Notes under the pieces: model-generated
Seen by the model: only the letters and a program-made list of their open reading frames with translations
Databases searched by the model: none
Told to the model about the DNA's origin: nothing
Shown: positions 3,006 through 44,670 of the stretch, in pieces
Layout of the letters: each line of letters begins with the position of its first letter
Position numbering within the stretch: position 1 is the first letter of the stretch
Source of the DNA: Escherichia coli
Lineage (GTDB): Bacteria > Pseudomonadota > Gammaproteobacteria > Enterobacterales > Enterobacteriaceae
Reading direction: 5' to 3' (one strand)
DNA: 64,000 nt
Assembly (NCBI RefSeq): GCF_013122565.1
Contig: NZ_CP053258.1
Program-made: the position numbers and the translations under genes

Positions 3006-3061
3006 ATATGTGTTAATGAAACCTTCTTGACGCTGATTTTTTTTCAACCTAAAGTAAAGGA

Positions 3062-3353: not shown

Positions 3354-3381
3354 AAAAAATCCCCGGCTTTTTGGGCCAGGG
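3354..3381 (-). terminator. Intrinsic terminator downstream of yqiK (minus strand)
   Basis: Minus-strand hairpin ccctggcccaaaaagccgggg followed by auuuuuu, 19 nt after the yqiK stop. Confidence 0.6.
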
Positions 3382-3399
3382 ACGTTCATAGCTGAAAAT

Positions 3400-6213: not shown

Positions 6214-6220
6214 TGTTGCT

Positions 6221-15960: not shown

Positions 15961-17856
<1,896 letters not shown>

Positions 17857-17867
17857 TAATCTTAACC

Positions 17868-17892
17868 CGGCAAACATGTGTTTTGCCGGGTT
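17868..17892. terminator. Terminator hairpin after parE (CCCGGCAAA cat gtg TTTGCCGGG)
   Basis: 9-bp perfect palindrome with T-rich flank; lies between parE and the first islet gene. Confidence 0.6.
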
Positions 17893-17900
17893 GTCGTTGA

Positions 17901-18770
17901 TTATTTTATTGGGCACAGTTTGTTACGATCTGGAAATAGTGTTGCCAGCGAACCAGCCAGAGTTTTCCAGTCCGTAGCCATTTTTTCTGCTTGTGCAGTT
18001 GTTATTACTGCACCTTGTTGTTTAATAAGCTCATCCTCCACTCTGGTATAGTGAATAATGGTAAAATCCGTAGAGGACCATTTATCCTTAGAGAACATCT
18101 TCGTCATCGCATGAATGTTTGCTTGCCCGTCATCGATAAAAATAATCGCGTCATATTTGTTCCCCATTTTATCCAGCATATAATCGAGAATTACGCCTTT
18201 ATCTTGCCCGGAAGAAAAAAATACCCCCTGGCTGTACAGCCATGACCGTTTGAGTTTCCCTTTTTCAAAGGGTGGCAAAGTATCCTCTTTCTTCCTGAGT
18301 GCGGAAGACGAAAAATCAATGCCGTTTCGCTTTAATTCCCGCAATGTCGGAAAGAGAGTATCCGGTGCACGGGATGTCAGAGCAAAAGCGGTATGCTTTT
18401 GTTGCCACTGTTTTAACATTGTCGGTAACTGTGGCTCGGTAAGCTGCATAGGGCTAAGTTCGTAAAGCATACTGATTGTATTTTCATACAGGCAAGGAAC
18501 TTTTTGCGAGTCATCCGGCTTTAAGGGCAATTTATCGGTTTGCCATTGATACCAGATATCACCGCCAATGCGTGTGCCACTCGTTAATAACGTATTATCA
18601 ATGTCAAAAACCAATAATATCTTATCGGATGGATAGAGAGTTTCCTTTTCGGTGATAATTTTACTGACCGCACTATATTCGCCAGTAACTATATTTTTTA
18701 CCTGTGCGTAAGATAAAGCAGGCAGAGCAGAGAGCATCATCCAGAGAATGATTTTAAATTTATTATTCAT
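17901..18770 (-). CDS. Secreted HAD-superfamily phosphatase (acid phosphatase-like)
   Basis: 289-aa ORF; N-terminal signal peptide (MNNKFKIILWMMLSALPALSYAQ); HAD motif I DIDNTL; later FIDDGQ motif. Confidence 0.65.
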   Translation of the reverse strand: MNNKFKIILWMMLSALPALSYAQVKNIVTGEYSAVSKIITEKETLYPSDKILLVFDIDNTLLTSGTRIGGDIWYQWQTDKLPLKPDDSQKVPCLYENTISMLYELSPMQLTEPQLPTMLKQWQQKHTAFALTSRAPDTLFPTLRELKRNGIDFSSSALRKKEDTLPPFEKGKLKRSWLYSQGVFFSSGQDKGVILDYMLDKMGNKYDAIIFIDDGQANIHAMTKMFSKDKWSSTDFTIIHYTRVEDELIKQQGAVITTAQAEKMATDWKTLAGSLATLFPDRNKLCPIK

Positions 18771-18783
18771 TTTTTATTCCAGA

Positions 18784-19518
18784 TTAGAAAGTATAAGTCA
18801 GACCCCAGCGCCAGCGGATTTGGCGATTACTTGATGTTTTATCCACACCTTTATAATCCGCAATACTCATATAGGGTATCCACGATCCAATTTTGTACCC
18901 TACTTTAAATGATGCGGTATAGTTTTTATGGCCATCATTCCACGTTAAATAACCATTATTGTAATAGACCAGGTTTAACTGATATTGGAAGTTGGTTTTT
19001 TGTGGTCGATAGTCGATCCACACATCATAACGGCGGTTATTACGATCATCGTTGCCATAACCTTTGGATTTATCGGTGGCTTTATCCATGTCATAACGAA
19101 ACCGACCCGAAACTTTCCATTCTTTGCTGAAGTCATAACCCGCAGAAAGACCATATTCGTAAGTTGACCAATATTGCGTGGTATCAAGCCAGAACATGGG
19201 TTCTAACCAGAATTTTTTGTCATCCAGCGGCTTAAAGCGGTAAACAACAGATAATCCTGTTCCGTTATTGCCAAATTGTGAGGGGTCCCACTTATCTTTA
19301 TCACCTTCATCGGTGTTATAGCGTAATTCTCCCATCAAACCGATACCATTACTAAAAAATGTACCAAATTCAACGCGGTCCGCGTGGGTGCGAGTATCAT
19401 CAAGATACTCATGACGATAATCAATAAATCCATGCGGCTGTTCTGCACAGACTAGTGTAGGTGACAGGCAGGATAACATTGTTATTCCTGCAAGTGATAT
19501 TTTAAGATAAGAATTCAT
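18784..19518 (-). CDS. Outer-membrane beta-barrel porin, KdgM/NanC family (tentative)
   Basis: 244-aa ORF; signal peptide; Tyr/Trp/Gly-rich alternating pattern; C-terminal ...GLTYTF; IDYRHE motif near the N-terminus. Confidence 0.6.
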   Translation of the reverse strand: MNSYLKISLAGITMLSCLSPTLVCAEQPHGFIDYRHEYLDDTRTHADRVEFGTFFSNGIGLMGELRYNTDEGDKDKWDPSQFGNNGTGLSVVYRFKPLDDKKFWLEPMFWLDTTQYWSTYEYGLSAGYDFSKEWKVSGRFRYDMDKATDKSKGYGNDDRNNRRYDVWIDYRPQKTNFQYQLNLVYYNNGYLTWNDGHKNYTASFKVGYKIGSWIPYMSIADYKGVDKTSSNRQIRWRWGLTYTF

Positions 19519-19613
19519 AATATTCCCTTTCAGAATAAAATATATTTTTGGTGATCGAATACACCATCTGATGATTCCAGGTATTAGAATGTTTTTGTAT
19601 CTATAGTTTGACT

Positions 19614-20738
19614 TTAAACTTTAAGTTTGTTTTCCTTATCAATGAATAGATAAAATTTCGTCTGTTGATGGGGCTGGAAATTATTATCAGATACAAATAT
19701 TAACGATGTATGCCCATCAATCAGAGGACCGAAGGTTACCCCTTCAATACAATCCGCAGAGGAAGTGTAATCAGCAAAATCAATTAATAATTTTTTACTG
19801 ACGGGTTGTAACGTGGATTTATTGGACCAATCTTGCAGACTGTCAATATTCTTGATATCGCTGGCAGCAGTTAAATCGACCATATAAACTCTGACAGAGT
19901 AATCCCAGTCATTGAACCCAGCACTGACGTTTCTGCCGGAACGTTCGATGACCAACAATTGGTGATCATTCAGCGCCAGGACCTCGGATACGCCATTATC
20001 ATTAATACCGAACTTACTCACTTGCGGAACAGGATCAGTAATATAGAGATATTCATGCAATTGCTTTGAAGGTCGACCGTCTGCATCTATAGAAAATTGC
20101 AGTAAGCGTGCTGTGCCTGAATTTATTGGACTTGCAATAGGCCCATCCTGTTTAAGGCTGCTTTCAACGGCGATAAAAAGTGATTTTCCATCTGGTGTAA
20201 CTGTCAGGCCCTCCCAGGCGTTGCCGCTGCGAATACCATTGCTGCTCTCTTTGTCAGAACTAATATTAAAGCGAGCAGGAAATAAAGACGTAAAATCTTT
20301 CTCCATTACGCCATCGAGAGTGCTCAGACGCAGTGGAGCACCTAACTCCGAACTCCAGAGTAATGATTTACCATTGTGTGTCAGGGCCAGACCTTCGGCA
20401 TCCACCGTATTGGTCACGAAAGGCTGCTGTTTTGCATCAAGCAGTGGACGCTGGTTGAGAAAATTCACTTGCTCAATGCCCCTGGATGATACCTGTATTT
20501 TTAGTGTATAAAGACTGGCATCTCCTTCTTTATTATTGTTTCTGCTATCGTTAATAGCATAGAAAATATTTTTTTTTGCATCAAATGTGATGGCTGATAG
20601 CCCCGCGATTGTGACATTGTTCTGCTTTTCTCCCGTCCGGAAGTTAAACTCCCCAGCATAATGAAGAAAACTGTTTGCCTGCGCTGTTGTGCATAACAGC
20701 GGTAATGCCAGAAAAATAGCGGCATATCTTATTTTCAT
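19614..20738 (-). CDS. Secreted beta-propeller-like protein, phytase-like esterase family (tentative)
   Basis: 374-aa ORF; signal peptide MKIRYAAIFLALPLLCTTAQA; repeated AEGLA / EGLTVTPDG / IEGVTF motifs. Confidence 0.5.
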   Translation of the reverse strand: MKIRYAAIFLALPLLCTTAQANSFLHYAGEFNFRTGEKQNNVTIAGLSAITFDAKKNIFYAINDSRNNNKEGDASLYTLKIQVSSRGIEQVNFLNQRPLLDAKQQPFVTNTVDAEGLALTHNGKSLLWSSELGAPLRLSTLDGVMEKDFTSLFPARFNISSDKESSNGIRSGNAWEGLTVTPDGKSLFIAVESSLKQDGPIASPINSGTARLLQFSIDADGRPSKQLHEYLYITDPVPQVSKFGINDNGVSEVLALNDHQLLVIERSGRNVSAGFNDWDYSVRVYMVDLTAASDIKNIDSLQDWSNKSTLQPVSKKLLIDFADYTSSADCIEGVTFGPLIDGHTSLIFVSDNNFQPHQQTKFYLFIDKENKLKV

Positions 20739-20765
20739 GATATTTACCTTTGTATATATATGATT

Positions 20766-21680
20766 TTAGTCGTGTTGTGAAAGAAAAAGATTAACCTCCG
20801 ATGGTGTCGGCAGATGACCTCTGGCACCTAATGCAGTAATATTTATTGCTGCTGTGGCAGAAGCAAATTTTAGTGCTTCAATTAAGGGCATGTTTTTTAT
20901 TAAGCTATAAACAAATGCACCATTAAAAGTATCTCCAGCGCCTGTGGTATCAATAACGGGAATTGTATAACTACCTATTTTTACTTGCTCATTGCCTTTG
21001 ACTGCAATTACTCCCCTAACATCCAGCGTAACCACGACAGCGTCAAGTTGATACTCGTCTTGTATATCATGCAGAAGTGTAAAATCTGGCTCTGTTGCAT
21101 AGCCACGAATAAAACCGTCATAATTAAATATCGCAATATCAGCAAGGTGTAAAATTCTGGCAAGGTGTTCAGGTGTTGCAATGATATGAGGCTCAATATC
21201 AACGACAACTTTTGTCATTTGGCTACGGGAATATTCGGCCAGCATACGAAATTTCTCGATATCTGCTGGCATCGTATAAAAATAACGGCTTTGCGCAATT
21301 GCCTGCAGGGCTTTTTCTTTATCCCACTCATGATCACTACCAGGCGAGTAAACCAACGTTTTTTCACCTAATTCATCAATAAAGATAATCGCGGTATTGG
21401 CAATCAATTCCGGAATTACCTGAACGAAATCACAATTTACATGATATTTTTTAAATCCATCAAGAATGATCGAGGCTGAATGATCATTGCCCACACATGA
21501 AACAGATACCACATTGAGACCCAGTTGTCCCATCGCACAGGCACTGTTGGCGACTGTGCCGCCAGCTTGTTCACCCAGACGTGTCCCGACAACTTTACCG
21601 CCACGAGTGGGGAGTGACGGGATAGATAAAAAAATATCTATATTTCCACTGCCTAAAGCGGCGACATCAAATTTCTTCAT
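20766..21680 (-). CDS. PfkB-family carbohydrate/nucleoside kinase
   Basis: ORF 20766-21734; start placed at MKKFDVAALG with GGGAGA ribosome-binding site; PfkB signature DTTGAGDTFNGAF. Confidence 0.8.
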   Translation of the reverse strand: MKKFDVAALGSGNIDIFLSIPSLPTRGGKVVGTRLGEQAGGTVANSACAMGQLGLNVVSVSCVGNDHSASIILDGFKKYHVNCDFVQVIPELIANTAIIFIDELGEKTLVYSPGSDHEWDKEKALQAIAQSRYFYTMPADIEKFRMLAEYSRSQMTKVVVDIEPHIIATPEHLARILHLADIAIFNYDGFIRGYATEPDFTLLHDIQDEYQLDAVVVTLDVRGVIAVKGNEQVKIGSYTIPVIDTTGAGDTFNGAFVYSLIKNMPLIEALKFASATAAINITALGARGHLPTPSEVNLFLSQHD

Positions 21681-21684
21681 AGTC

Positions 21685-22683
21685 TTATTTCTCCCTATGG
21701 CTAACGCGTTGCCCGCCTGCGTCGACATAATCACAACTTAAATGCCAGCACATTTCATATAACCACTGCATGACCAGAAATAAATTGTTGGACTCACTGG
21801 CGTCAGGTATAAAACTGATTAATTCTGCTGTCGCTCCCTGTTCAACAATTGCTTTTTGGGTTGCAAGGTAAAATGGGGACTCGCAGGATGTGGCTGGTAG
21901 TAAAATATAATGCTGACCGACACCAGCCTGATGTAAGCGTAATGAATGATAAAATTCTTCCAGTGGAAGGGCTGTCGCACGAATCTGTGGGCCGCAAGAA
22001 AGTAAATTGCTCCCCGATATTGCCAGTCCCCAACTTAAGCCACTCCCAAGAAACGTTATCTCTTTTTGTTGGTAAAAATGGCGCTTCTTTTGCTGCCAGT
22101 GCTGATTAATCTGGCTAAATTTCCCTTCCAAATCCTCTTCAATCTGCAGTGGTGTTAAGCCTGGACATAATTTTTGCGCTAAGCGCAGGAGGGCATAAAG
22201 TGTGACGCTACTACTTTGCGTTGGAATACCCTGCTTATTCGCCCATGTATAGAGCATGTTTTCTGTTATTGCGCAAAATGGTGTTCCAGGGCAATTCGTC
22301 ACACCCAGCACTTGCGCGTTTGAGCATACTGCGTGGCAGAGGGCGTCAACGGTCATTGATGGTCTGCCACTTGCACTGAGAATAATGATTAACGTTTCTT
22401 TCTGATAACGGGTTAAATCAGTCTGAAGGAAATCCCACGTTTGCAATGCGTAACAAAACAGATGTGTGTATTTCCCCAGCCAGGCGGCGGCACATAGTGC
22501 CACCGTCCAGGAGTCGCCCGATCCCACTATACAGACGCGTTCAACAGCACGTTTATCGAGCTGAAAAGTAGAAAAACATTCACCCCAGATAGCTGCCAAA
22601 TGGCGTAACGATGCCGCGGTAGCATTTATTTCCTCACGAGTTTGCGCTAATGGCATAACAGGAGTACGGGCTGGCATGTTCAT
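21685..22683 (-). CDS. SIS-domain sugar-phosphate isomerase/deglycase-like protein
   Basis: 332-aa ORF; SIS motifs (VGSGDSW, SASGRPS); start codon overlaps the stop of the upstream gene by 1 nt. Confidence 0.7.
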   Translation of the reverse strand: MNMPARTPVMPLAQTREEINATAASLRHLAAIWGECFSTFQLDKRAVERVCIVGSGDSWTVALCAAAWLGKYTHLFCYALQTWDFLQTDLTRYQKETLIIILSASGRPSMTVDALCHAVCSNAQVLGVTNCPGTPFCAITENMLYTWANKQGIPTQSSSVTLYALLRLAQKLCPGLTPLQIEEDLEGKFSQINQHWQQKKRHFYQQKEITFLGSGLSWGLAISGSNLLSCGPQIRATALPLEEFYHSLRLHQAGVGQHYILLPATSCESPFYLATQKAIVEQGATAELISFIPDASESNNLFLVMQWLYEMCWHLSCDYVDAGGQRVSHREK

Positions 22684-23759
22684 TATTTCTCCTGTGCCTG
22701 TAATGCAAGCAATGTCAGACCCGATGCGATCGCTTCAATATCGAAATCTTTATTATTTACGGCGCGGAAAAAGGCATATTTATCTTCAGGGAGCGCATCA
22801 AAACCGCGCCATGCCCCTGCAATTGCGCCTGCCATCGTAGCGATGCTATCGGTGTCATTGCCAATATTGGCGCAGGCATGAATGGTTTCCCAGGGTTCTC
22901 CTTTGCAGTACAGCAATAGACCGATTGCCGCAGGAATGGATTCATGGGCGGCAACAGAGTTACCAACCAAACCTTCCATTTCTCGCAGACAAGACTCCAG
23001 GTCATTGGCTCGTCTGGCGATGTCCGCTGCAAGTTGGATGCGCATGGCGATAGATGGCCCTGCGACACATCGTGCATATTGTTTGGCCAGGCGTTCGCCG
23101 TAATTCGCTCCCCAGATTGCGGCGTCCAGTAATGATGTGAGCGAGGCTTCTGGTAACATAGCTTGTGATGTCGCCGCAGCGATGGCGCAAGCGCTGGCAA
23201 TCGCAATATTGGTGTCATGCGAAGGTAGGCAAGTTATTAGCGCCAGGTGACACGCTTTTTCTTTCTTGCCTGGCCAGATCAATCCTGCCGGGGCTACACG
23301 CATTCCTGCGCCGTTCGTGGTGCCGACATTGGGTGCCTGACGAGAAGATGTTCCAATACGCCCAATGGTGTTTGTTGGTCTACCTTCTTTTAGTGCCTTG
23401 ACGATTTGTTCTGTTGTGGGGCCTTTATAATTTGCGTAGGGCTGCATATCGGCCCAACGCAGAAGACAAGCTAACCAGTCATTATTGGTGAAGTTATCAA
23501 ATCCAGCCTCAATTAACCCTTCTGAAAATACATACATTTGGCTGGAATCGTCGGTAATAAGTCCCGCAATACCATTTAATGAGCCAGCAAAGGTATCGGC
23601 AGGAGGAGAAACAAAGGCATTTAAAAAACCTCCCCATTGCGCTTTTATTTCATCAATGCTGTAGAGTTCAGTCGCTGCGCCTAATGCATCGCCCATACCC
23701 GCGCAGGCTAAAGAACCTAATATTTTGTTATAAATTACGGCTTGTTCTATTTTGTTCAC
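22683..23759 (-). CDS. ADP-ribosylglycohydrolase-family protein
   Basis: 358-aa ORF; N-terminal GMGDALGAATE and C-terminal GNDTDSIATMAG motifs typical of the family. Confidence 0.75.
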   Translation of the reverse strand: MNKIEQAVIYNKILGSLACAGMGDALGAATELYSIDEIKAQWGGFLNAFVSPPADTFAGSLNGIAGLITDDSSQMYVFSEGLIEAGFDNFTNNDWLACLLRWADMQPYANYKGPTTEQIVKALKEGRPTNTIGRIGTSSRQAPNVGTTNGAGMRVAPAGLIWPGKKEKACHLALITCLPSHDTNIAIASACAIAAATSQAMLPEASLTSLLDAAIWGANYGERLAKQYARCVAGPSIAMRIQLAADIARRANDLESCLREMEGLVGNSVAAHESIPAAIGLLLYCKGEPWETIHACANIGNDTDSIATMAGAIAGAWRGFDALPEDKYAFFRAVNNKDFDIEAIASGLTLLALQAQEK

Positions 23760-23772
23760 AATATTCTCTCTG

Positions 23773-24525
23773 TTACACGCTAAAACTGTCTTTTGTAATT
23801 CGTGCTTTGTAGGAGTACCGACTTGCGGGATAAACCATCTCTACATACTCCATTGGTTTGCGTTCCACGGATAACGTGACGCGGGTACAACTTAATACGA
23901 CGTCATCGGCAGTCAGTTCCAGTAATTGACGCTCAAGAGGCGAGGGAAGTCGGGCAGAGATAATTTCCGTTGCTTCTAAAGGTTTAATAGCGAGTTTTTC
24001 TTCCAGTAAAATATAGAGGGAACCCGTCGCCAGCAGCTCTTCCTGAGTTATTTCTTGTCCGTCATTTAACGCAAGCCATGATGTCTGAATACCCAGCGGC
24101 GTACTTCCCATATAGCGAATGCGTTTTATACAGAAAACGGTATGGACATGGATATCAAGTTCGAGATTTTTTCTGATAATATCACTTAGAGGAATATAAC
24201 CTATTTCAAGAATATTCTGTGCAGGTACGCCGCCACGAGCCTTAATGTCATCAGTAAAACTATGTAATAAATGATTTTCCCGACTGCGAGCCGGTAATGT
24301 AAATGTTCCTTGCCCGTGGACACTATGCAGGTATCCGCGTTGTTTCAAACTTTCTATTGCTTTCCGAATTGTTGTTCTGCTGCTTAAAAAATGTTCAGCA
24401 AGTTCTCTTTCTGTTGGTATAGCTTTGCCTTCTTTCCATTCACCGTTATCAATCTTTTTCTTTATTTCATCAAAAATTTCACGATGCTTAAGCTGACCTT
24501 TACTGGCTTTATAAATTCTTATCAT
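23773..24525 (-). CDS. GntR/HutC-family transcriptional regulator (winged-HTH + UTRA domain)
   Basis: 250-aa ORF; N-terminal HTH (PTERELAEHFLSSRTTIRKAIESL); first gene of the minus-strand cluster, divergent from the transporter. Confidence 0.8.
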   Translation of the reverse strand: MIRIYKASKGQLKHREIFDEIKKKIDNGEWKEGKAIPTERELAEHFLSSRTTIRKAIESLKQRGYLHSVHGQGTFTLPARSRENHLLHSFTDDIKARGGVPAQNILEIGYIPLSDIIRKNLELDIHVHTVFCIKRIRYMGSTPLGIQTSWLALNDGQEITQEELLATGSLYILLEEKLAIKPLEATEIISARLPSPLERQLLELTADDVVLSCTRVTLSVERKPMEYVEMVYPASRYSYKARITKDSFSV

Positions 24526-24707
24526 GACAAAGCCTCATTTCAAGTGGTTGATACCAACTCTACATTCTTTTATTTTTATTGCGCAGTATGCTTCTTTGTT
24601 ATCTGTGATATAAAACAGAAAAAACCACATTTATTATTAAAAATCATTCAGTTAAATGAGATTGGTTTTTATGTGATGCTGCTCAATATTAACTCAGTGG
24701 TTTGTTG

Positions 24708-24719
24708 TGGTATCTACCA
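24708..24719. promoter_or_regulatory. Palindrome TGGTATCTACCA in the divergent promoter region; candidate GntR/HutC operator
   Basis: Perfect inverted repeat TGGTA-tc-TACCA between the regulator and transporter genes. Confidence 0.4.
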
Positions 24720-24811
24720 ATGCATTTATTCTCACTCGTAAAGTTATGTGCTGAATGAGTTCCGATACATTTGTTTTTAATATAATTTCACGTGATCAAT
24801 GAGTGCTGTGT

Positions 24812-26143
24812 ATGAAACTGACAATAAATGAAAAGATAGGTTTTGGTGCCGGTGATATGGCTATTGCGATAGTAATGATGTCTTTAGCCATGATCATCAC
24901 TTATTTTTACACGGATGTATTTGGTCTGAAACCCGTCGACTTAGGTATTCTGTTATTTTCTGTACGTATCCTTGATGCTGTGATTGATCCAGTTGTGGGA
25001 ACAATGACAGACAGAACGAATACACGTTGGGGAAAATATCGGCCGTGGTTGCTTTTTATGTCAATACCGTTTGGGATAAGCATTTGGTTGATGTTCACCA
25101 CACCTGATACCGATTATTCAGTTAAGCTTTTATGGGCCTGGGCTACCTATGTGTTACTTACCTTGACCTATACGTTAATCGCTATTCCTTATGTTTCATT
25201 AATCAGCGTTATCACGGATGATCCACAAGAGCGATTGAGCGCCAATGGTTATCGTTTTGTTATGACAAAAATTGCCATGTTCGCCGTAACAATTATTGTT
25301 CCTTTATCTGCAATGTATCTTGGGAAGAATAACGTACAACTGGGTTATCAAATAGCAATGGGGGCAATGGGAATTCTGGCAACGTGTTTATGCCTGTATT
25401 GTTTTTTTAGCGTGAGAGAGCGCATCTACCATCCAAAACCCAGTCTCGGTATGGCCGCGCAGTTTCGGTTACTGATCAAAAATGATCAATGGCTCATTTT
25501 GGGCGCTGTAATTGCGATCATTATGTTTGGCGGGATTATTCGTAACTCTGTCGCTGCATATTATGCAAAATATTACCTGAATGGTGGGGATGCTTTAATT
25601 TCACCGTTTTTAACTTCAGGCGTGATCGCCTCTGTTCTGGCTATGATCGCTTGTACCTGGCTTACTCGACTCTACGACAAAATAAAAATATTTCGTTATA
25701 CCCAATTACTGGCGTTCGTGGTGGGTGGTGCGATGTATTTCGTGCAACCAAATTCTATAGTGTTAGCTTTTACATTTTATATTGTGGTGACCTTCCTGAC
25801 GGATATTCAGCTTCCCATTTATTGGGCATCCATTGCTGAGTCCGTGGATTACGGTGAAATGAAAACGGGGCAACGTGTTTCTGGCCTGGCATTTGGCGGG
25901 ATTCTCTTTTTCCAAAAGTTCGGTATGGGGCTGGCAGGGGGCTTTATCGGAATCGCTTTAGCCTATTTGGATTATCAACCTGGTGTAGAACAAACACCAC
26001 AGGCGCTGTGGGGGATCTGCCTGTTAATGACGATCATTCCCGCGATACTTAACCTGATTACCGGACTCATCATGCGATTTTATCTGATTAATAATGAATT
26101 TTACGAACAGATTAAAGCACGGTTACAGACGGCGGAAGAGTGA
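24812..26143 (+). CDS. GPH-family (glycoside-pentoside-hexuronide) cation symporter
   Basis: ORF 24803-26143 with about 12 predicted transmembrane helices; N-terminal GxGxGD and RWGKYRPW motifs typical of MelB/YicJ-like transporters; start uncertain. Confidence 0.75.
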   Translation: MKLTINEKIGFGAGDMAIAIVMMSLAMIITYFYTDVFGLKPVDLGILLFSVRILDAVIDPVVGTMTDRTNTRWGKYRPWLLFMSIPFGISIWLMFTTPDTDYSVKLLWAWATYVLLTLTYTLIAIPYVSLISVITDDPQERLSANGYRFVMTKIAMFAVTIIVPLSAMYLGKNNVQLGYQIAMGAMGILATCLCLYCFFSVRERIYHPKPSLGMAAQFRLLIKNDQWLILGAVIAIIMFGGIIRNSVAAYYAKYYLNGGDALISPFLTSGVIASVLAMIACTWLTRLYDKIKIFRYTQLLAFVVGGAMYFVQPNSIVLAFTFYIVVTFLTDIQLPIYWASIAESVDYGEMKTGQRVSGLAFGGILFFQKFGMGLAGGFIGIALAYLDYQPGVEQTPQALWGICLLMTIIPAILNLITGLIMRFYLINNEFYEQIKARLQTAEE

Positions 26144-26186
26144 ATATAAATGGCCGGCAAACAGCACCGGCCTCTTTTCAGGAATG

Positions 26187-27113: not shown

Positions 27114-27222
27114 TTTTTAACCTCAAGGTGAGACGTTTTCCGACTATAGTACGTCACAGAGCGGTACGGTGAAATTAGCAAAATGTGCAAAGTCTTTTGC
27201 GAATTTAGCAAAAATCTTACCC

Positions 27223-28572: not shown

Positions 28573-29228
28573 TTCTCACCTAATGTGTAGCCAATACCAT
28601 GCACGGTACGAATAAAATCACTGCCGAGTTTGCGTCGCAGATGATGCACATGCACTTCAACGGCATTACTGGTGACCTCTTCGTCCCAGGTATACAGTTT
28701 CTCTTCAATCAGTTTGCGCGGCAGTACCCGACCAGCGTTACGCATCAGTAATTCCAGCAGAGCAAATTCTTTTGGTTTCAGTATTAAGGGTTCGCCAGCC
28801 AGCGTGGCGATACGTTTGCCGGGGTCGAGCATGACGTTACCGTGGCGCAGTTCGTTGCTGGCCTGGCCGTTGGTTCGGCGCATCAGAGCTTCCAGCCTGG
28901 CGGCGACTTCTATCAACGCAAAAGGTTTACACAGATAATCGTCAGCTCCCAGACGCAGCCCCTCAACACGTTCCGCTAACGCATCGCGCGCGGTCAGGAT
29001 CAGTACCGGCTCACGCTGACCTTTTTCTCGCCATTCGCGCAAAATATCGCGACCATCCATGCCTGGTAAGGTTAAATCCAGGATCACCGCATCATAAGGC
29101 GCACTATATAGCGCCTCTTTTCCCTGACGACCTTGTGTAAACCAGTCGACGCTAAAACCCATTTTACCAAGGCCAGTTTTGATGCCGTCGCCAATCAGCA
29201 TGTCATCTTCTATCAGTAAAATTCGCAT
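28569..29228 (-). CDS. qseB: Response regulator QseB (OmpR family)
   Basis: 219-aa ORF; receiver domain (MRILLIEDD...DLTLPGMDG) and winged-helix output domain. Confidence 0.9.
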
Positions 29229-29379
29229 TTTTTCATCCCTGCGATAACCGTATTTGCTGCCAGTAAACCGTGTTGTAACGCGCTCTGTACAGCATTAAAT
29301 TTTATTTTTTTCCCTTAAGAAGTTGTTAAGGACTATCTTGTTAAATGCTCGGAAACAGACATTAAAGGGAGTAATAAAC

Positions 29380-29772
29380 ATGAAAAAATTCGCAGCAGTA
29401 ATCGCAGTAATGGCCCTGTGCAGCGCACCGGTGATGGCAGCAGAGCAGGGCGGTTTTTCTGGCCCATCGGCAACGCAAAGTCAGGCTGGAGGATTCCAGG
29501 GGCCGAACGGCAGCGTAACGACCGTAGAAAGCGCAAAATCCCTGCGTGACGACACCTGGGTAACCCTGCGCGGCAATATCGTTGAACGCATCTCTGACGA
29601 TCTCTACGTGTTCAAAGATGCCAGCGGTACTATCAATGTTGATATCGACCACAAACGCTGGAACGGCGTGACGGTGACGCCGAAAGATACGGTTGAGATC
29701 CAGGGGGAAGTCGATAAAGACTGGAATTCTGTTGAAATTGACGTAAAACAGATCCGCAAAGTAAATCCGTAA
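29380..29772 (+). CDS. ygiW: Periplasmic BOF (OB-fold) family protein YgiW
   Basis: ORF 29323-29772; start placed at MKKFAAVIAVMALCSAPVMA signal peptide (130 aa). Confidence 0.85.
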   Translation: MKKFAAVIAVMALCSAPVMAAEQGGFSGPSATQSQAGGFQGPNGSVTTVESAKSLRDDTWVTLRGNIVERISDDLYVFKDASGTINVDIDHKRWNGVTVTPKDTVEIQGEVDKDWNSVEIDVKQIRKVNP

Positions 29773-29824
29773 TTGTTACCGCTCCCGGGACGCGTTCCCG
29801 GGAATAATTTCGCAGGGAGGCAAA

Positions 29825-30307
29825 ATGACAAACCTGACACTGGATGTAAACATTATCGATTTCCCATCAATCCCTGTGGCGATGTTGCCGCACCGCTGTA
29901 GCCCTGAATTGCTCAACTACAGCGTGGCGAAATTTATCATGTGGCGTAAAGAGACGGGGCTTTCTCCTGTTGACCAAAGCCAGACTTTTGGCGTCGCCTG
30001 GGACGACCCTGCCACCACCGCACCGGAAGCGTTTCGCTTTGATATCTGCGGCAGCGTTAGCGAACCGATTCCCGATAATCGTTATGGTGTGAGTAATGGT
30101 GAACTTACCGGTGGACGTTATGCCGTGGCCCGCCACGTTGGCGAGCTGGACGATATTTCACACACGATATGGTGCATCATTCGCCACTGGCTGCCTGCAA
30201 GCGGCGAGAAAATGCGTAAAGCACCGATTCTGTTTCACTACACCAATCTTGCCGAAGGGGTGACAGAGCAGCGACTGGAAACGGATGTTTATGTGCCGTT
30301 GGCGTGA
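29825..30307 (+). CDS. ygiV: GyrI-like small-molecule-binding protein YgiV
   Basis: 160-aa ORF following ygiW. Confidence 0.8.
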   Translation: MTNLTLDVNIIDFPSIPVAMLPHRCSPELLNYSVAKFIMWRKETGLSPVDQSQTFGVAWDDPATTAPEAFRFDICGSVSEPIPDNRYGVSNGELTGGRYAVARHVGELDDISHTIWCIIRHWLPASGEKMRKAPILFHYTNLAEGVTEQRLETDVYVPLA

Positions 30308-30437
30308 TGCCTGACTCCAGCTTCCCTTATAAATTCCTGCTTCAAACTGGCGCTACTAATGCGCCACTTTCTTATATGGTCAATCACTTTCCTTAAAGAA
30401 TACGTTTTGTGTGGTCACTATCTCCGTACATCTAACT

Positions 30438-30481
30438 AACCTTTTAGGTGCTTTTTCATTGCTGTAATTAACCTTTTAGGT
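30438..30481. promoter_or_regulatory. Two AACCTTTTAGGT palindromes (30438-30449 and 30470-30481): MqsA operator sites in the mqsRA promoter
   Basis: Two perfect ACCT-n4-AGGT palindromes about 20 bp apart, 30-70 bp upstream of mqsR. Confidence 0.75.
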
Positions 30482-30511
30482 TATAACTAAAGTAACAGGG
30501 AGGCGGGGGTT

Positions 30512-30808
30512 ATGGAAAAACGCACACCACATACACGTTTGAGTCAGGTTAAAAAACTTGTCAATGCCGGGCAAGTTCGTACAACACGTAGTGCACTGTT
30601 AAATGCAGATGAGTTAGGTTTGGATTTTGATGGTATGTGTAATGTTATCATTGGATTATCAGAGAACGACTTTTATAAAAGCATGACCACCTACTCTGAT
30701 CATACTATCTGGCAGGATGTTTACAGACCCAGGCTTGTTACAGGCCAGGTTTATCTTAAAATTACGGTAATTCATGACGTACTGATCGTCTCATTTAAGG
30801 AGAAGTAA
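30512..30808 (+). CDS. mqsR: Type II toxin MqsR (mRNA interferase)
   Basis: 98-aa ORF MEKRTPHTRLSQVKKLV...; immediately precedes mqsA. Confidence 0.9.
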   Translation: MEKRTPHTRLSQVKKLVNAGQVRTTRSALLNADELGLDFDGMCNVIIGLSENDFYKSMTTYSDHTIWQDVYRPRLVTGQVYLKITVIHDVLIVSFKEK

Positions 30809-30809
30809 T

Positions 30810-31205
30810 ATGAAATGTCCGGTTTGCCACCAGGGAGAAATGGTTTCTGGCATTAAAGATATTCCATACACCTTCCGTGGACGAAAAACAGTATTGAAAG
30901 GTATCCACGGTTTATATTGTGTCCATTGCGAAGAGAGCATCATGAATAAAGAAGAGTCAGATGCTTTCATGGCGCAAGTAAAGGCATTTCGGGCTTCGGT
31001 GAATGCCGAAACAGTGGCACCTGAATTTATAGTGAAGGTTCGAAAAAAGCTCTCTCTTACACAAAAAGAGGCAAGCGAAATTTTTGGGGGAGGTGTAAAT
31101 GCGTTTTCGCGTTACGAAAAAGGCAATGCCCAACCTCATCCTTCCACAATCAAACTTTTACGTGTTCTGGATAAGCATCCAGAACTATTAAATGAAATCC
31201 GTTAA
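30810..31205 (+). CDS. mqsA: Antitoxin MqsA (zinc-ribbon + HTH-XRE)
   Basis: 131-aa ORF; N-terminal CxxC...CxxC zinc ribbon; C-terminal HTH; starts 2 nt after the mqsR stop. Confidence 0.9.
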   Translation: MKCPVCHQGEMVSGIKDIPYTFRGRKTVLKGIHGLYCVHCEESIMNKEESDAFMAQVKAFRASVNAETVAPEFIVKVRKKLSLTQKEASEIFGGGVNAFSRYEKGNAQPHPSTIKLLRVLDKHPELLNEIR

Positions 31206-31337
31206 TTAATGGAAAAGCGGGGGCAACTCGCTTTTTTCTTTACCGGAGTGTGAGCCAAATCACTCGTGATAAGTTTGAGCAAACAATGCCACAGGCGTAT
31301 TGTTGTCGGGCTTATAATTTCTCCGGTAAGGAATACC

Positions 31338-32945
31338 ATGTATACGCGAAATTTATTATGGCTGGTCAGCCTGGTAAGTGCGGCTCCTCTCTACGCTGCT
31401 GACGTTCCCGCCAATACACCGCTCGCCCCGCAACAAGTCTTTCGTTACAACAATCATAGCGACCCAGGTACGCTCGACCCGCAAAAGGTGGAGGAGAATA
31501 CTGCCGCGCAGATTGTGCTGGATCTGTTTGAAGGTCTGGTATGGATGGACGGTGAAGGCCAGGTGCAGCCCGCTCAGGCTGAACGCTGGGAGATACTGGA
31601 CGGCGGCAGGCGCTATATTTTCCATCTGCGTAGCGGTTTGCAGTGGTCCGACGGTCAGCCTCTGACGGCAGAGGATTTTGTCCTCGGCTGGCAGCGCGCG
31701 GTTGACCCGAAAACGGCAAGCCCTTTTGCTGGCTATCTGGCACAGGCGCACATTAACAATGCCGCGGCTATTGTTGCGGGTAAAGCAGATGTTACATCGC
31801 TGGGTGTCAAAGCGACGGATGATCGTACTCTTGAGGTTACGCTTGAGCAGCCGGTTCCTTGGTTCACGACGATGCTCGCCTGGCCGACGCTGTTCCCGGT
31901 TCCTCATCATGTCATCGCTAAACATGGCGATAGCTGGAGTAAGCCAGAGAACATGGTTTACAACGGTGCCTTTGTGCTTGATCAGTGGGTAGTTAACGAA
32001 AAGATTACTGCACGCAAAAATCCAAAGTACCGCGATGCGCAACATACAGTATTGCAACAGGTTGAGTATCTGGCGCTGGATAATTCGGTCACCGGCTATA
32101 ACCGCTATCGCGCGGGAGAGGTCGATCTCACCTGGGTTCCGGCGCAGCAAATTCCCGCCATTGAAAAATCACTGCCTGGCGAGCTACGAATTATCCCGCG
32201 GCTGAACAGCGAATATTACAACTTTAACCTTGAGGAACCGCCATTTAACGATGTGCGGGTGCGTCGGGCGCTATATCTTACGGTTGATCGACAGCTTATT
32301 GCGCAAAAGGTACTGGGGTTGAGGACGCCCGCAACCACGCTGACGCCGCCAGAGGTAAAAGGCTTTAGCGCGACGACGTTCGATGAACTGCAAAAGCCAA
32401 TGAGTGAGCGCGTCGCGATGGCAAAAGCCTTGCTGAAACAGGCGGGATACGACGCCTCTCATCCGCTACGCTTTGAGCTTTTCTACAACAAGTACGATCT
32501 GCATGAAAAGACCGCGATAGCGTTGTCTTCCGAATGGAAAAAATGGCTGGGTGCACAGGTGACGCTGCGCACAATGGAGTGGAAAACTTATCTTGATGCC
32601 CGACGAGCCGGTAATTTCATGCTGTCTCGGCAGTCGTGGGATGCGACGTATAATGATGCTTCCAGCTTCCTGAACACGCTCAAAAGCGATAGTGAAGAAA
32701 ACGTCGGTCACTGGAAAAATGCGCAGTATGACGCCTTACTAAACCAGGCCACGCAGATCACTGATGCGACAAAGCGTAATGCGTTGTATCAGCAGGCAGA
32801 AGTGATCATCAACCAACAGGCACCGCTGATTCCTATCTACTATCAGCCGTTAATCAAACTGCTTAAACCCTACGTTGGCGGTTTTCCGCTGCATAATCCC
32901 CAGGATTATGTCTACAGCAAAGAGTTGTATATCAAGGCACATTGA
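31338..32945 (+). CDS. ygiS: Periplasmic solute-binding protein, family 5 (oligopeptide/deoxycholate-binding-like)
   Basis: ORF 31266-32945; start placed at MYTRNLLWLVSLVSAAPLYA signal peptide (535 aa). Confidence 0.85.
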   Translation: MYTRNLLWLVSLVSAAPLYAADVPANTPLAPQQVFRYNNHSDPGTLDPQKVEENTAAQIVLDLFEGLVWMDGEGQVQPAQAERWEILDGGRRYIFHLRSGLQWSDGQPLTAEDFVLGWQRAVDPKTASPFAGYLAQAHINNAAAIVAGKADVTSLGVKATDDRTLEVTLEQPVPWFTTMLAWPTLFPVPHHVIAKHGDSWSKPENMVYNGAFVLDQWVVNEKITARKNPKYRDAQHTVLQQVEYLALDNSVTGYNRYRAGEVDLTWVPAQQIPAIEKSLPGELRIIPRLNSEYYNFNLEEPPFNDVRVRRALYLTVDRQLIAQKVLGLRTPATTLTPPEVKGFSATTFDELQKPMSERVAMAKALLKQAGYDASHPLRFELFYNKYDLHEKTAIALSSEWKKWLGAQVTLRTMEWKTYLDARRAGNFMLSRQSWDATYNDASSFLNTLKSDSEENVGHWKNAQYDALLNQATQITDATKRNALYQQAEVIINQQAPLIPIYYQPLIKLLKPYVGGFPLHNPQDYVYSKELYIKAH

Positions 32946-33082
32946 TGCCTTTATCGCCGTCGGAGCACGTCCGGCGGCGCTATTCACGCTGATCTCCTGT
33001 GACTCGACGCGGCAGATAATGTAGTATCTCCGGCAATATTGCCCCTTTGAAGGCTGGCGAATAAGTTGAGGAATCAGAATTA

Positions 33083-37799: not shown

Positions 37800-37849
37800 T
37801 GGACCAATTCATCGCTCCACTGAGTGGTGGGGCGATACAAGGATGAAAC

Positions 37850-39274
37850 ATGGATGGCATGGGATGGATGATTATTTTGGTACTTCCCTTTCTTTGGATG
37901 GGGTATGGACTGGCGTTGTTAATCATAACGGGGTGCGCTTTTGAATCTAAGGGGATTCGTCGCGTTCTGCTATGGGGTGTTGCGCCTCAGTTTATTATTC
38001 TTTGTATTGCGACCTTATTGCTTTACTGGACTAACTCTCGGTTAATTTATGTTTTTGTCTTTTTTCAGCCAGTTTTATGTATCACCACGGCAATTTTTTT
38101 ATTTGCTGGTAAAAAAACACAATATTCCAGATTGCTGTTTACTCTGTCTCATGTGATTTTTCTCGCTGGCGTTTTATATCAGGGGCATAGGGAAAATCTG
38201 CAATACATAATTAATAACGACTGGAAGGAATATAAAATAACGCGTTTATTTGAGCAAGTGCAGGACAATGGGGCGCATGCGCTGAATAACGATGTAACTT
38301 GTTCAGAATTAATGCAACTACTCACACTGGCAGCGGAACGTAATGACGTCAAAGAAGAGACGTTACGTACTCTTATTGCAAAGAAAGTATCGCCATTTCT
38401 GACAATGTCAGATAACTGTACGGGTGAGAATTCAGTAGAGACTTATTCTGTATATACTACGCCTTTTATGGCAGCTATTCAAAATCATAATATACATTCT
38501 GTCCGTTTTTTTAGTCAATTGCTTATGGGAAACTCATCAAAAGCAAAAAATAATCGTGACATTGTGCGCCGGGCAAACCCATTGATCGAAGTGTATAAAT
38601 ATAGTCATGGTTCTAAAAAACAACGTAAGTCAGGGTTAGAAATAAGTAAGCAATTAATGGCCATTATGCCAGAGCTATTAACAGATGCCGTCTGGCGTGC
38701 CGTGCTCAATGTATATGATGCCGATGCAGCACGATGGTTCTGGCGTAAGCAACCACCAGAAAATCGGTTGTATCGCTTAAAGGCTATGGCATTAATACCA
38801 CAAACGGATGCGCTATTGGCGGAGATTCGACAAACTCCAGAGGTACTGAATATCTCGTCTGAGGGAGACCTGAATGAAGAGGAGTTTCTCCATTTCTTAA
38901 TTTATGGAGGAGATACCGCTGTAATACATGCACTGGTTGAAAAAGGAATAGTTAACTGGCAGCACCTTATGAACATTGAGGGGTTTGATAAGGACCCCTT
39001 AATTTGGGCTATTTCAAAACTGGGAGAAAATGACAATGACCGGGAGGTTTTGACATTAATTATTCATGATATTAATGCGCAAAATGCACTGCCGGAGGAT
39101 CGCATAGCCAAATATTTAACGCGGACGGGATCAATGGGCGAGATTTTTTTAAAGGCGGGCGTACATTGTGATAAGTTATATGCGGCAATTGAGTCCGACA
39201 AAAAGCGAAATAATGGTATGTATAGTCAAAACGCCAGGGAAGAAGTGGATCGAGTATGTACGCCCGCAAAATAG
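37850..39274 (+). CDS. Hypothetical membrane protein, paralog A: about four N-terminal transmembrane helices and a helical (possibly ankyrin-like) C-terminal domain
   Basis: 474-aa ORF with AGGA ribosome-binding site; AT-rich codon usage; clear paralogy to the next ORF; not part of the K-12 gene order I recall. Confidence 0.6.
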   Translation: MDGMGWMIILVLPFLWMGYGLALLIITGCAFESKGIRRVLLWGVAPQFIILCIATLLLYWTNSRLIYVFVFFQPVLCITTAIFLFAGKKTQYSRLLFTLSHVIFLAGVLYQGHRENLQYIINNDWKEYKITRLFEQVQDNGAHALNNDVTCSELMQLLTLAAERNDVKEETLRTLIAKKVSPFLTMSDNCTGENSVETYSVYTTPFMAAIQNHNIHSVRFFSQLLMGNSSKAKNNRDIVRRANPLIEVYKYSHGSKKQRKSGLEISKQLMAIMPELLTDAVWRAVLNVYDADAARWFWRKQPPENRLYRLKAMALIPQTDALLAEIRQTPEVLNISSEGDLNEEEFLHFLIYGGDTAVIHALVEKGIVNWQHLMNIEGFDKDPLIWAISKLGENDNDREVLTLIIHDINAQNALPEDRIAKYLTRTGSMGEIFLKAGVHCDKLYAAIESDKKRNNGMYSQNAREEVDRVCTPAK

Positions 39275-39319
39275 GTGCAGTTTGGGGCGGTTAAGGAATA
39301 AAAAATAAAGGACTAAGCC

Positions 39320-40729
39320 ATGCGTAATGATGAATTTTTTCACCATTTTACTTTGACACTGTTTATGTTGGGTGGCTATCTACTGACTCTGTTCATCGTT
39401 ATCGTCCTTTCCTTTTTTAGCCCATTATGCCGAAAAATGGTCTTCCATGGCGCATTGCCGCAATTGATGATGGCAATAACGGTGTCGCTCGGTTTATATT
39501 ATCTGGAACGATACTCTTTTGCGGTATGGGCCTTACTGGATTCTTTTTGGATATTATTCCCCTGCCTGTTATTGATCATAGTGATAAATAAATGGTTAAA
39601 GCGTTCCCTTGTATGGATGAGTGCTTGTCATATTATGTGCTTGCTGTTGTTACTCTGGCAGGTGCAGCCCACGTTATTTAAAATCAGCTTTTATCACCAA
39701 CAATTAAGTCACCTGGCTCAGGCAGAGCAGGAAAATTTCCGCACACTGGATGCGATTCACGATACGCAACGTCTGGAAGCGATGTTACTGGTAGCGTTGA
39801 AATCCCCGGAAAATCAAACCTCTGAAAATGCCTTTCGCTATCTGTCAGGGCGAATCTCACCATTTGCTATACCTTCCATTGGCGATGAACAGTATTCTAC
39901 CCGCACTTTTTTTACGATTGCGTTGGAACATTACAACGCCCGCGCCATCCGCGCGTTTAGCCGCTTTCTGCAAGGAAATTCCTCAAAAGCGCAGGAATAT
40001 CGTGCGATTGTTCATCAAAAAAATCCACTGCAGCAGATGTACCGGGGAATAAGTTTGCCAATTCGTTTTAGTGAAGAAGAGATCGCCCGTCACATTATTG
40101 CCGCTCGCGAGATAAGCCTCACCTTACTGCCCCTGATGCCAGAATTATTAAACGAAGAGGCGTATGCAAATGTCATTGATGCTTATGACAGCGCAACGCT
40201 GAAGGCTTTTTGGCAGTTCCAGCTGCCGCCTACGCCGGTTTTGCGCCTGGAAGCGATGTCGGTAATTCCCATGACAGCGGCACTGGTTCAACAGGTGAGA
40301 GAGTCACCAAAACGGCTTGAACTGGAAGATAAAAGTGGCAGGACAGTACTAACTTACATCGTGCGCTTTGGAAATATTGCCGCAGTACAGGCACTGATTG
40401 ACGCTAATCTGATCGACTGGCAACGGCTTCGCCAATCGACAGAAAGGTCAACACCATTATTACTGGCGACCTGGCGACAAAAATACGACGATGATCATGT
40501 AATCTTCCCATTGATTTTAAAGGACATGCTGGCAAAAAATGCGCCACCCTCAGCAGAGGAAATAATGAACTGCCTTAAGGATGGTATGACCGCAGATGAT
40601 TTTTTCTCTGCCGGAATGAGCAACACGCAATTCTGTTCTGCGATTGAACAAAGCCTCCAGGCGAAAACGTCAGTATTACCGGCGAATCGATTACGCCATC
40701 TGCAATCCTCGCTGTGTGCAAAGCTGTAA
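39320..40729 (+). CDS. Hypothetical membrane protein, paralog B, same architecture as paralog A
   Basis: 469-aa ORF; shared blocks with paralog A, e.g. FSRFLQGNSSKAQEYRAIV vs FFSQLLMGNSSKAKNNRDIV and RLEAMSVIPMTAAL vs RLKAMALIPQTDAL. Confidence 0.6.
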   Translation: MRNDEFFHHFTLTLFMLGGYLLTLFIVIVLSFFSPLCRKMVFHGALPQLMMAITVSLGLYYLERYSFAVWALLDSFWILFPCLLLIIVINKWLKRSLVWMSACHIMCLLLLLWQVQPTLFKISFYHQQLSHLAQAEQENFRTLDAIHDTQRLEAMLLVALKSPENQTSENAFRYLSGRISPFAIPSIGDEQYSTRTFFTIALEHYNARAIRAFSRFLQGNSSKAQEYRAIVHQKNPLQQMYRGISLPIRFSEEEIARHIIAAREISLTLLPLMPELLNEEAYANVIDAYDSATLKAFWQFQLPPTPVLRLEAMSVIPMTAALVQQVRESPKRLELEDKSGRTVLTYIVRFGNIAAVQALIDANLIDWQRLRQSTERSTPLLLATWRQKYDDDHVIFPLILKDMLAKNAPPSAEEIMNCLKDGMTADDFFSAGMSNTQFCSAIEQSLQAKTSVLPANRLRHLQSSLCAKL

Positions 40730-40844
40730 CCAACCGGAAGTTAAGTCATCCGCTGAAAACATCGCATTAACTTTTCGATTTCTCTTTCGTTCCGGCTTAT
40801 AATCCCCGGCCTTTGATTATTTTTTTATCATTTCTGGAAGCAAA

Positions 40845-43064: not shown

Positions 43065-43134
43065 ATTCGCTGTTCCCGGTAGCAGAATTGCTACCGGGGA
43101 TATTACTTCAGAATCTATCTCATTAGGCATTTAT

Positions 43135-43491
43135 TTATATGCCGAAATGTATCATGTGTTTATTTTCTCTGATAGCTTTTTGTATTACTTCTGATAAAGA
43201 AAGAAGTAAAGGATCGTGCTGGAATTTTGTATCCGATACAACAATATGAAGAAACTGATTTAATGAATCTGGTGGGATAATGGTGACTCCGTAGCGAGCA
43301 AGCGCATAACCTGGACGATTTAAACTATGATAGAAGGTTTTTATTGTCTGAAGTTGTTCCCACCATTCATCAATATAAATGTCATCATCAATATAAACGC
43401 AATTATATTTTTCAGGTTCATAGTGACCATAATCTTTATCAGTATCAATTTCATCAATAATACCAAATTCGGTTTTAATCATAATGACCAT
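43135..43491 (-). CDS. Small acidic hypothetical protein (118 aa)
   Basis: ORF with AT-rich composition downstream of the yqhG-like paralog on the same strand; no family recognised. Confidence 0.4.
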   Translation of the reverse strand: MVIMIKTEFGIIDEIDTDKDYGHYEPEKYNCVYIDDDIYIDEWWEQLQTIKTFYHSLNRPGYALARYGVTIIPPDSLNQFLHIVVSDTKFQHDPLLLSLSEVIQKAIRENKHMIHFGI

Positions 43492-43673
43492 GCTTTTTAA
43501 TTGTTATGCAGAAAAATGCCAGGAAAATGATTTAAATTGAATTTTCTGGGGTGATTTGTAATCTTGCTTGTCATATAGATGAGCCATCCAACGAGGTTGT
43601 GCAACATTTAATGAGGGAGACTGGACCAGAACAAGGCTGGGGATTAATATAGAAATGATTAACAATAGTGGCT

Positions 43674-44597
43674 TCATTTTGTCGTTGTTTCCATATTATT
43701 TTTAGCAGATTCCGCCTGTAATTTTTTGATTTCTTGTTCTCTGTGGCGTGCAAACTCTTTACGGGTCGTGACGCGTTCATACAAAGTAATATCGGTAATC
43801 CCCCCACTCCGCATGCCCAAATGACCTCGTATATCCATATCAAATGTTCCAGCTATCCGGACATAATCGCCATTTAGCTGACGAGCACGAGTTAAGGTCA
43901 CGACTGGGTTTGGGAAATCAATATCCAACCACACGCTATCACTTTGAACAAAATTTTCCCAGGATTCTTTATTTAAATATAAGGCGTTGCCTTCAAACTC
44001 AATATTGCCGACACCTTCGACAACCACCTTTTGCAAATGGTATTTTTCTGGCTGCGCAAGTAGTGCCGTCATTGATATCGAATGAGAAAAATGATCGCTT
44101 GAGGGTTCATTAATTACAGCTCTGCGTTTCATTCGCGTATCTTCACGTATTTCTGCCCGTAGACTGTTAGGCATTTCATTACCATCATCGATGTCTTCTA
44201 TTAGCCAGCGATGATTATCATTTTCACGAACCAGCATCAGCCCCAGTAACCGGTGGACATTGGTGCGATTTTGTTTGATAACCAACTGCAACAGTACATG
44301 CGTTCGGCCGCCATTTAGGTGTGTGCTTTGGATTATTTCTGCAGAAACGAAAGTATCATCAACACAGCGACACAAAAGATTATTATTCAGCCAGGGTGTC
44401 ATTTTGCCAGGAGTAGCGCTCATATTACTTCGCAAATCGAGACTGAATTCATCGGTTATTGGTATATCGCCATTACTGGTCAATGGTTGGTACAAACGTT
44501 CTATCGCTTCATTAATCGATTCTTTGCACAACACGTTTCCGCTGAAGCCACAGAACAGCAGAATAAAAAAACAGGTGTGCCAGCGTCGCATAATCAT
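43674..44597 (-). CDS. Secreted YqhG-like (DUF3828-like) protein, second paralog
   Basis: 307-aa ORF with signal peptide; shares motifs with the dkgA-proximal yqhG ORF (NHRWLIEDI vs NGRWVIDDI). Confidence 0.6.
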   Translation of the reverse strand: MIMRRWHTCFFILLFCGFSGNVLCKESINEAIERLYQPLTSNGDIPITDEFSLDLRSNMSATPGKMTPWLNNNLLCRCVDDTFVSAEIIQSTHLNGGRTHVLLQLVIKQNRTNVHRLLGLMLVRENDNHRWLIEDIDDGNEMPNSLRAEIREDTRMKRRAVINEPSSDHFSHSISMTALLAQPEKYHLQKVVVEGVGNIEFEGNALYLNKESWENFVQSDSVWLDIDFPNPVVTLTRARQLNGDYVRIAGTFDMDIRGHLGMRSGGITDITLYERVTTRKEFARHREQEIKKLQAESAKNNMETTTK

Positions 44598-44670
44598 GCC
44601 CTTATGTTTGGCTTTTTCTTAGCAAACAGCCTCTAACCCGGCAACTGACATGCTGCCGGGGATTTTTTTA

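Follow-up and report, generated by a model that had tools for sequence, protein, structure and literature searches.

An intact K-12-type mqsRA toxin–antitoxin operon at its usual chromosomal locus in Escherichia coli

The locus at positions 30438–31205 of the window, i.e. the whole 64-kb stretch of Escherichia coli DNA analysed here, is with a probability of about 95% a chromosomal mqsRA type II toxin–antitoxin operon of the K-12 type, intact and located at the usual ygiV/ygiS site. This span opens with the first base of the distal operator 12-mer and closes with the final base of the mqsA stop codon. The operon is an already known system in a known place, real but ordinary; a preliminary description of the locus had likewise called the module known, and a K-12-type mqsRA at the K-12 locus is what was found. 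The assignment relies on the close similarity of both proteins to solved K-12 structures, on the organization of the operators and on the surrounding gene order, and no feature of the sequence speaks against it.

Gene structure of the operon

Gene order is of the reverse type, with the toxin gene mqsR first and the antitoxin gene mqsA directly downstream on the same strand. Both genes are read on the + strand from ATG to TAA. The first, mqsR (30512–30808), encodes a protein of 98 aa, by family a toxin with GCU/GCA-specific endoribonuclease activity, and the second, mqsA (30810–31205), a protein of 131 aa, by family an antitoxin and repressor. Both reading frames are whole, as originally described; a frameshift or premature stop, sought in each gene by ORF reading and by comparison with K-12, is absent (0 internal stops or frameshifts). 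The genes meet at the junction GAG AAG TAA T ATG. Their spacer is a single nucleotide (T at 30809) and not the 2 nt first reported, since the mqsR stop codon ends at 30808 and the mqsA ATG begins at 30810; the K-12 annotation has the same spacing. Putative Shine–Dalgarno elements, read from the sequence on the + strand, are GGGAGG for mqsR (30498–30503, 8 nt before the ATG) and AAGGAG for mqsA (30797–30802, 7 nt before the ATG), the latter within the 3′ end of mqsR.

The MqsR toxin and its S52N allele

Alignment with the characterized K-12 proteins, a check proposed in the preliminary description, confirms the identity of both partners. MqsR is identical at 97 of 98 positions to chain B of PDB 3hi2 (E = 4.7e-62), with S52N as the sole change. 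It covers the full PF15723 profile (MqsR_toxin) with 120 bits for a cut-off of 26.2, and no NCBIfam model matches it. The residues K56, Q68, Y81 and K96, all of which affect toxicity (PMC2791442), are kept, and two of them, K56 and Y81, are strictly needed for RNA cleavage (PMC9636575). When 110 full-length homologues are aligned, K56 and Q68 do not vary and Y81 and K96 hardly do; D53 and F54 are likewise invariant or nearly so.

The S52N replacement results from a G to A substitution at 30666 and lies four positions before the catalytic K56. Across these 110 homologues, column 52 varies widely (A 29, S 18, K 16, Q 13, T 9, G 7, R 6 and D 4), and residue 52 is neither among those showing substrate-induced chemical-shift changes nor flagged as catalytic (PMC9636575). 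Because of this hypervariability and the lack of a substrate-induced shift, S52N is probably neutral. The allele is rare: among the complete RefSeq E. coli genomes, 2297 have mqsR, and A at 30666 occurs in 0 of them; all match the 81-nt probe at ≤98.8%. The exact N52 protein is public as WP_171460351.1 and QJU26971.1 and was found on only four contigs, one of which, from Logan run SRR11451224, shares 6.3 kb with the window at 100% identity. The gene mqsR contains one GCU site and mqsA three, versus ∼3.3 and ∼4.4 expected from base composition, which is no striking depletion.

The MqsA antitoxin

MqsA is identical over 131 of 131 residues to the K-12 protein of PDB 2kz8, 3gn5 and 3o9x (E = 2.4e-86). 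It matches PF15731 (MqsA_antitoxin) with 188 bits, far above the curated cut-off, as well as NCBIfam TIGR03830 (147 bits) and TIGR03831. An N-terminal CxxC...CxxC domain is followed by a C-terminal HTH-XRE domain. The four cysteines C3, C6, C37 and C40, known as zinc ligands (PMC2791442), are present, and so are N97 and R101, which are cited in PMC5422877 as the DNA-binding residues of MqsA and would contact DNA here.

Operators

The 12-mer AACCTTTTAGGT is found in exactly two copies, at 30438–30449 and 30470–30481. Its 11-nt core ACCTTTTAGGT likewise has two copies in the 64 kb (30439–30449 and 30471–30481) and was found in none of 100 dinucleotide-preserving shuffles; with one mismatch allowed in the core search, chance matches become plausible. 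Relaxing the motif to ACCT-N3-AGGT adds no match anywhere in the 64-kb window. The two sites represent a 17-nt direct repeat TAAYTAACCTTTTAGGT (30433–30449 and 30465–30481), with its copies 32 bp apart. Two perfect palindromes in the promoter had been announced for this locus. The two exact repeats are indeed there, but the 12-mer is not self-complementary, its symmetric parts being ACCT and AGGT around an asymmetric TTT.

On the + strand, the predicted distal MqsA operator (30439–30449) reads ACCT TTT AGGT and has 4-bp arms (TAACCT...AGGTGC), and the predicted proximal operator (30469–30483) reads TAACCT TTT AGGTTA and has 6-bp arms (TAACCT/AGGTTA). In the K-12 mqsRA promoter, a 15-bp palindrome lies nearer the gene and an 11-bp palindrome farther upstream, with centres 32 bp apart (PMC4894380). 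The sites of the window correspond to these published palindromes, the distal one to the 11-bp and the proximal one to the 15-bp element, in size, order and 32-bp spacing (PMC4894380), so that the likeness to the MqsA binding-site architecture noted earlier is upheld. Both sites map to K-12 coordinates with one constant offset, of 1978 nt to NC_000913.3.

Promoters and terminators

A putative sigma-70 promoter, pRA (30459–30487, + strand), can be drawn upstream of mqsR, with a −35 hexamer TTGCTG (30459–30464), a 17-nt spacer and a −10 hexamer TATAAC (30482–30487). This is the best pair of hexamers upstream of the gene (8 of 12 matches), and the −35/−10 assignment is inferred. With the hexamers so placed, the proximal operator fills the spacer of pRA and reaches into the −10 element by two bases, and the end of the distal operator is 10 nt upstream of the −35 element. 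An arrangement of this kind is well suited to repression through occlusion of the promoter.

Two constitutive promoters inside mqsR, pA1 and pA2, have been reported to transcribe mqsA independently of mqsR (PMC6918082). A promoter scan of the window gives a promoter-like site within mqsR (TTGTTA-16-TAAAAT, 30735–30762, + strand), the position of which fits the published pA1; pA2 is expected ∼111 nt upstream of this site, near 30620–30651, from the description in PMC6918082. The internal-promoter region is K-12 DNA except at 30666 and 30793, and the surroundings of pA2 are K-12 DNA except at 30666.

Terminator-like hairpins are found 3′ of ygiV and 3′ of mqsA. The first (30348–30366, + strand), seen by terminator scan and by folding, is TGGCGC-TACTAAT-GCGCCA followed by a T-rich tail. 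It lies 41 nt past the ygiV stop codon, inside the module-specific segment described below, and is probably where transcription of ygiV stops, so that read-through would be kept from the mqsRA promoter. The second (31211–31237, + strand; GGAAAAGCGGG / CTCGCTTTTTT) has a fold of −12.8 kcal/mol and ends in a T6 run; it was seen by folding and was not reported by the simple terminator scan.

Proposed mechanism

The activity of mqsRA in this strain is inferred from the near-identity of its proteins and DNA to those of K-12. By analogy with the mechanism established for the K-12 system, MqsR would be a small endoribonuclease of RelE fold that cleaves single-stranded RNA at GCU and, less efficiently, at GCA, with no need of the ribosome and with Lys56 and Tyr81 as catalytic residues; RNA cleavage by MqsR at GC[A/U], independent of translation, is established (PMC2814082). 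MqsA would act as a fully folded dimer, the N-terminal zinc domain of which binds MqsR and sterically blocks access of RNA, and the C-terminal HTH domain of which binds the ACCT-N3-AGGT dyads. Because these two dyads flank and overlap the −35/−10 region of the operon promoter, MqsA would repress mqsRA transcription. Deletion of mqsRA raises pRA activity ∼3-fold (PMC6918082). MqsR in excess would displace MqsA from DNA and have no co-repressor role, in line with the summary given in PMC7167474, where MqsR is described as displacing MqsA and not as a co-repressor. Finally, the two constitutive promoters within mqsR would transcribe mqsA alone, and the antitoxin would thus stay in excess.

Comparison with K-12 MG1655

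The K-12 MG1655 genes mqsR (b3022) and mqsA (b3021), formerly ygiU and ygiT, share with the window the locus, the neighbours, the terminator and the 1-nt spacing. A gap-free comparison of positions 30250–31400 (1151 bp) with K-12 MG1655 shows eight substitutions and no indel. Three of the eight are in mqsR (A28 synonymous, S52N and S94 synonymous), two in mqsA, both synonymous, and three in the mqsA–ygiS spacer; overall, four of the five coding changes are synonymous. The 204-nt ygiV–mqsR region (30308–30511), which contains the promoter and both operators, does not differ from K-12. The neighbourhood qseC, qseB, ygiW, ygiV, mqsR, mqsA, ygiS and parC is that of K-12 in reverse orientation. The gene after mqsA, ygiS, encodes a family-5 periplasmic solute-binding protein (PF00496, SBP_bac_5).

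A presence/absence segment carrying mqsRA

The module is present in 2282–2297 of 5426 complete E. coli genomes (∼42%), and ∼58% are without it. When the occupied site is aligned with two empty ones, an mqsRA presence/absence segment of 927 bp is delimited (30310–31236, + strand), which has 40.6% G+C versus 49.7% for the window. In genomes without the module, such as O157:H7 ECP19-2498 and EC9682, the 5 nt GGGAA stand in place of 30310–31236 and a distance of 108 nt separates ygiV from ygiS. The left junction is found 2 nt past the ygiV stop codon, the right junction at the foot of the ygiS leader stem, and the terminator-like hairpins at 30348–30366 and 31211–31237 are near both ends. A search of the segment ends gave no convincing sign of a target-site duplication or of terminal inverted repeats, only short two-copy matches that are probably due to chance. 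Of the homologues named from other genera, the closest show only ∼66–71% identity. Collectively, a discrete low-G+C segment with a hairpin near each end and with distant homologues in other genera suggests an old horizontal acquisition. [quoted passage not shown] The adherent-invasive (AIEC) strain NRG857c has been reported to be without mqsRA (PMC7232551).

Several observations concern the surroundings of the segment. In strain LD91-1 (L009, 12895–13441), mqsRA and ygiS are both absent and ygiV is directly followed by parC; therefore, the ygiV–parC interval takes at least three structural forms within the species. Genomes without the mqsRA cassette are also without the ygiV hairpin, and ygiV transcription may there read through into the ygiS leader. 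This leader folds strongly, with an MFE of −38 kcal/mol (31230–31345; z = −3.9), and 0 of 200 shuffles fold as well. Its 13-bp closing stem pairs 31236–31248 with 31321–31333, and the 3′ arm covers the ygiS Shine–Dalgarno sequence. The stem is kept in genomes without mqsRA, the right junction of the cassette falling exactly at its foot. No Rfam family matches 29000–33000 at E up to 1, and the ygiS leader (31236–31333) is also without a match.

Relation to other systems

The Pseudomonas putida KT2440 MqsR/MqsA pair (PP_4205/PP_4204) has the same gene order and the same ACCT-N3-AGGT operator core (PMC5422877), and its MqsR is also devoid of co-repressor function (PMC5422877). The P. putida proteins share 58% (MqsR) and 45% (MqsA) identity with those of E. 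coli K-12 (PMC5422877). In P. putida KT2440 a single palindrome overlaps the ribosome-binding site (PMC5422877), whereas the window has two copies, 32 bp apart, over the promoter. The tripartite MqsR/MqsA/MqsC phage-defence system of E. coli C496_10 (PMC10783111) likewise pairs an RNase toxin of the MqsR family with an antitoxin of the MqsA family. It differs by a third gene, for the SecB-type chaperone MqsC, in place of which ygiS is found here, past the terminator-like hairpin. Classification of the present locus as an anti-phage system was considered and rejected: PADLOC gave no match for MqsR or YgiS and only weak HTH matches to RmrA for MqsA, and MqsC is absent.

[quoted passage not shown] However, unlike the toxins of the HigBA type, MqsR cuts RNA at GC[A/U] independently of the ribosome (PMC2814082), and unlike their antitoxins, MqsA binds zinc through its N-terminal domain and is folded over its whole length (PMC2791442).

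Other features of the window

Three further accessory regions absent from K-12 are found in the window. Between parE and ygiN, an 8.3-kb island (17853–26186) encodes a DUF2608 protein, a KdgM-family porin, a phytase-like esterase and a PfkB kinase, together with a SIS-domain protein, an ADP-ribosylglycohydrolase, a GntR/UTRA regulator and an MFS_2 transporter; it looks like a catabolic cluster for a sugar or nucleoside derivative. Between ftsP and ygiQ, a 3-kb islet (37801–40772), found at 96.9% identity in only 13 of the 5426 complete E. coli genomes, contains two tandem paralogues of ∼470 aa (37850–39274 and 39320–40729) that are 26% identical (E = 3e-45). These have hydrophobic N-termini, only sub-threshold ankyrin matches and no PADLOC or NCBIfam match. 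Between ygiQ and yqhH, a 1.6-kb islet (43066–44636), found in 128 of 5426 genomes, contains two minus-strand ORFs, 43135–43491 (118 aa) and 43674–44597 (307 aa), which have no Pfam, PADLOC or NCBIfam match and appear as hypothetical proteins in other annotations. Compared with K-12, the window is without the ygiL–yqiGHI fimbrial operon (∼6.6 kb, with IS2 in K-12) and without ygiZ (∼590 bp), the corresponding sites being 6218–6289 and 27218–27222. At ∼2651–3382, two tandem copies match the K-12 sibD/ibsD and sibE/ibsE type I toxin–antitoxin repeats, with a cross-match of ∼92%.

Alternative readings of the locus and its role

An origin of the reading frames and repeats by chance, or decay of the locus into a pseudogene pair, can be dismissed in view of the E-values versus solved proteins (4.7e-62 for MqsR and 2.4e-86 for MqsA), of an exact operator core recovered in 0 of 100 shuffles and of two genes free of stop codons and frameshifts. 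A subtler possibility is that the module is intact but that S52N weakens or alters the toxin, be it in activity, RNA preference or binding to MqsA. The rarity of N52 (0 of 2297 complete genomes, and a protein known from only four contigs) and its distance of only four positions from the catalytic K56 speak for such an effect. It is nevertheless very improbable, given that position 52 is among the most variable columns of the family and is neither part of the RNA-binding chemical-shift set nor flagged as catalytic, that S to N is a conservative polar change, and that the remaining four coding changes are synonymous, indicating continued purifying selection. A composite reading, in which the 927-bp segment is a horizontally acquired cassette that alters ygiV termination and ygiS read-through, with N52 separately altering the toxin, is held to be quite unlikely.

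The role of the intact K-12-type module in the cell is a matter of dispute. Its qualification as a stress-regulatory element, made in the preliminary description, follows earlier publications that assert such a function, which an independent study could not reproduce (PMC6918082). According to the stress and biofilm model, MqsA is a global repressor acting on rpoS, csgD and cspD, and stress-triggered proteolysis of MqsA frees MqsR; the claims come from overexpression studies (PMC4894380; review PMC4803016). In the independent study, however, mqsRA had no effect on stress tolerance or biofilm formation, the activity of the rpoS, csgD and cspD promoters was unaffected at near-native MqsA levels, and mqsA was made constitutively (PMC6918082). 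Moreover, the 64-kb window offers no additional ACCT-N3-AGGT site, and the absence of the module from ∼58% of complete E. coli genomes is hard to square with a core regulatory role. Regulation of stress and biofilm thus appears unlikely. A further reading, possible but less likely than not, is that the module is mainly a horizontally acquired cassette, self-maintaining (addictive) or anti-phage, and not a host regulator. The discrete 927-bp segment with 40.6% G+C in a 49.7% window, its variable presence across E. coli, the ∼66–71% identity of the nearest named homologues in other genera and the blocking of phage T2 by the related three-gene MqsRAC (PMC10783111) are all consistent with it. Against this stand the absence of a gene for the SecB-like chaperone MqsC, with ygiS coming after mqsA, the lack of a PADLOC match for MqsR, the lack of demonstrated anti-phage activity for the two-gene K-12 type in the literature examined, and segment ends without target-site duplication or terminal repeats.

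Implications

With mqsRA among the best-characterized toxin–antitoxin systems and a copy nearly identical to the reference, the intact K-12-type operon has little importance beyond correct annotation. The S52N toxin allele of this lineage is rare and probably neutral; under the readings judged improbable above, this N52 MqsR might alter toxin activity. The accessory status of the module (∼42% of genomes) and its sharp boundaries fit an acquired cassette and not a core regulator. Under the composite reading, held above to be quite unlikely, ygiV transcription would end differently with and without the cassette, and read-through into ygiS would likewise depend on it. This could explain some of the contradictory mqsRA phenotypes (ygiS/deoxycholate) as polar effects and not as effects of the toxin.
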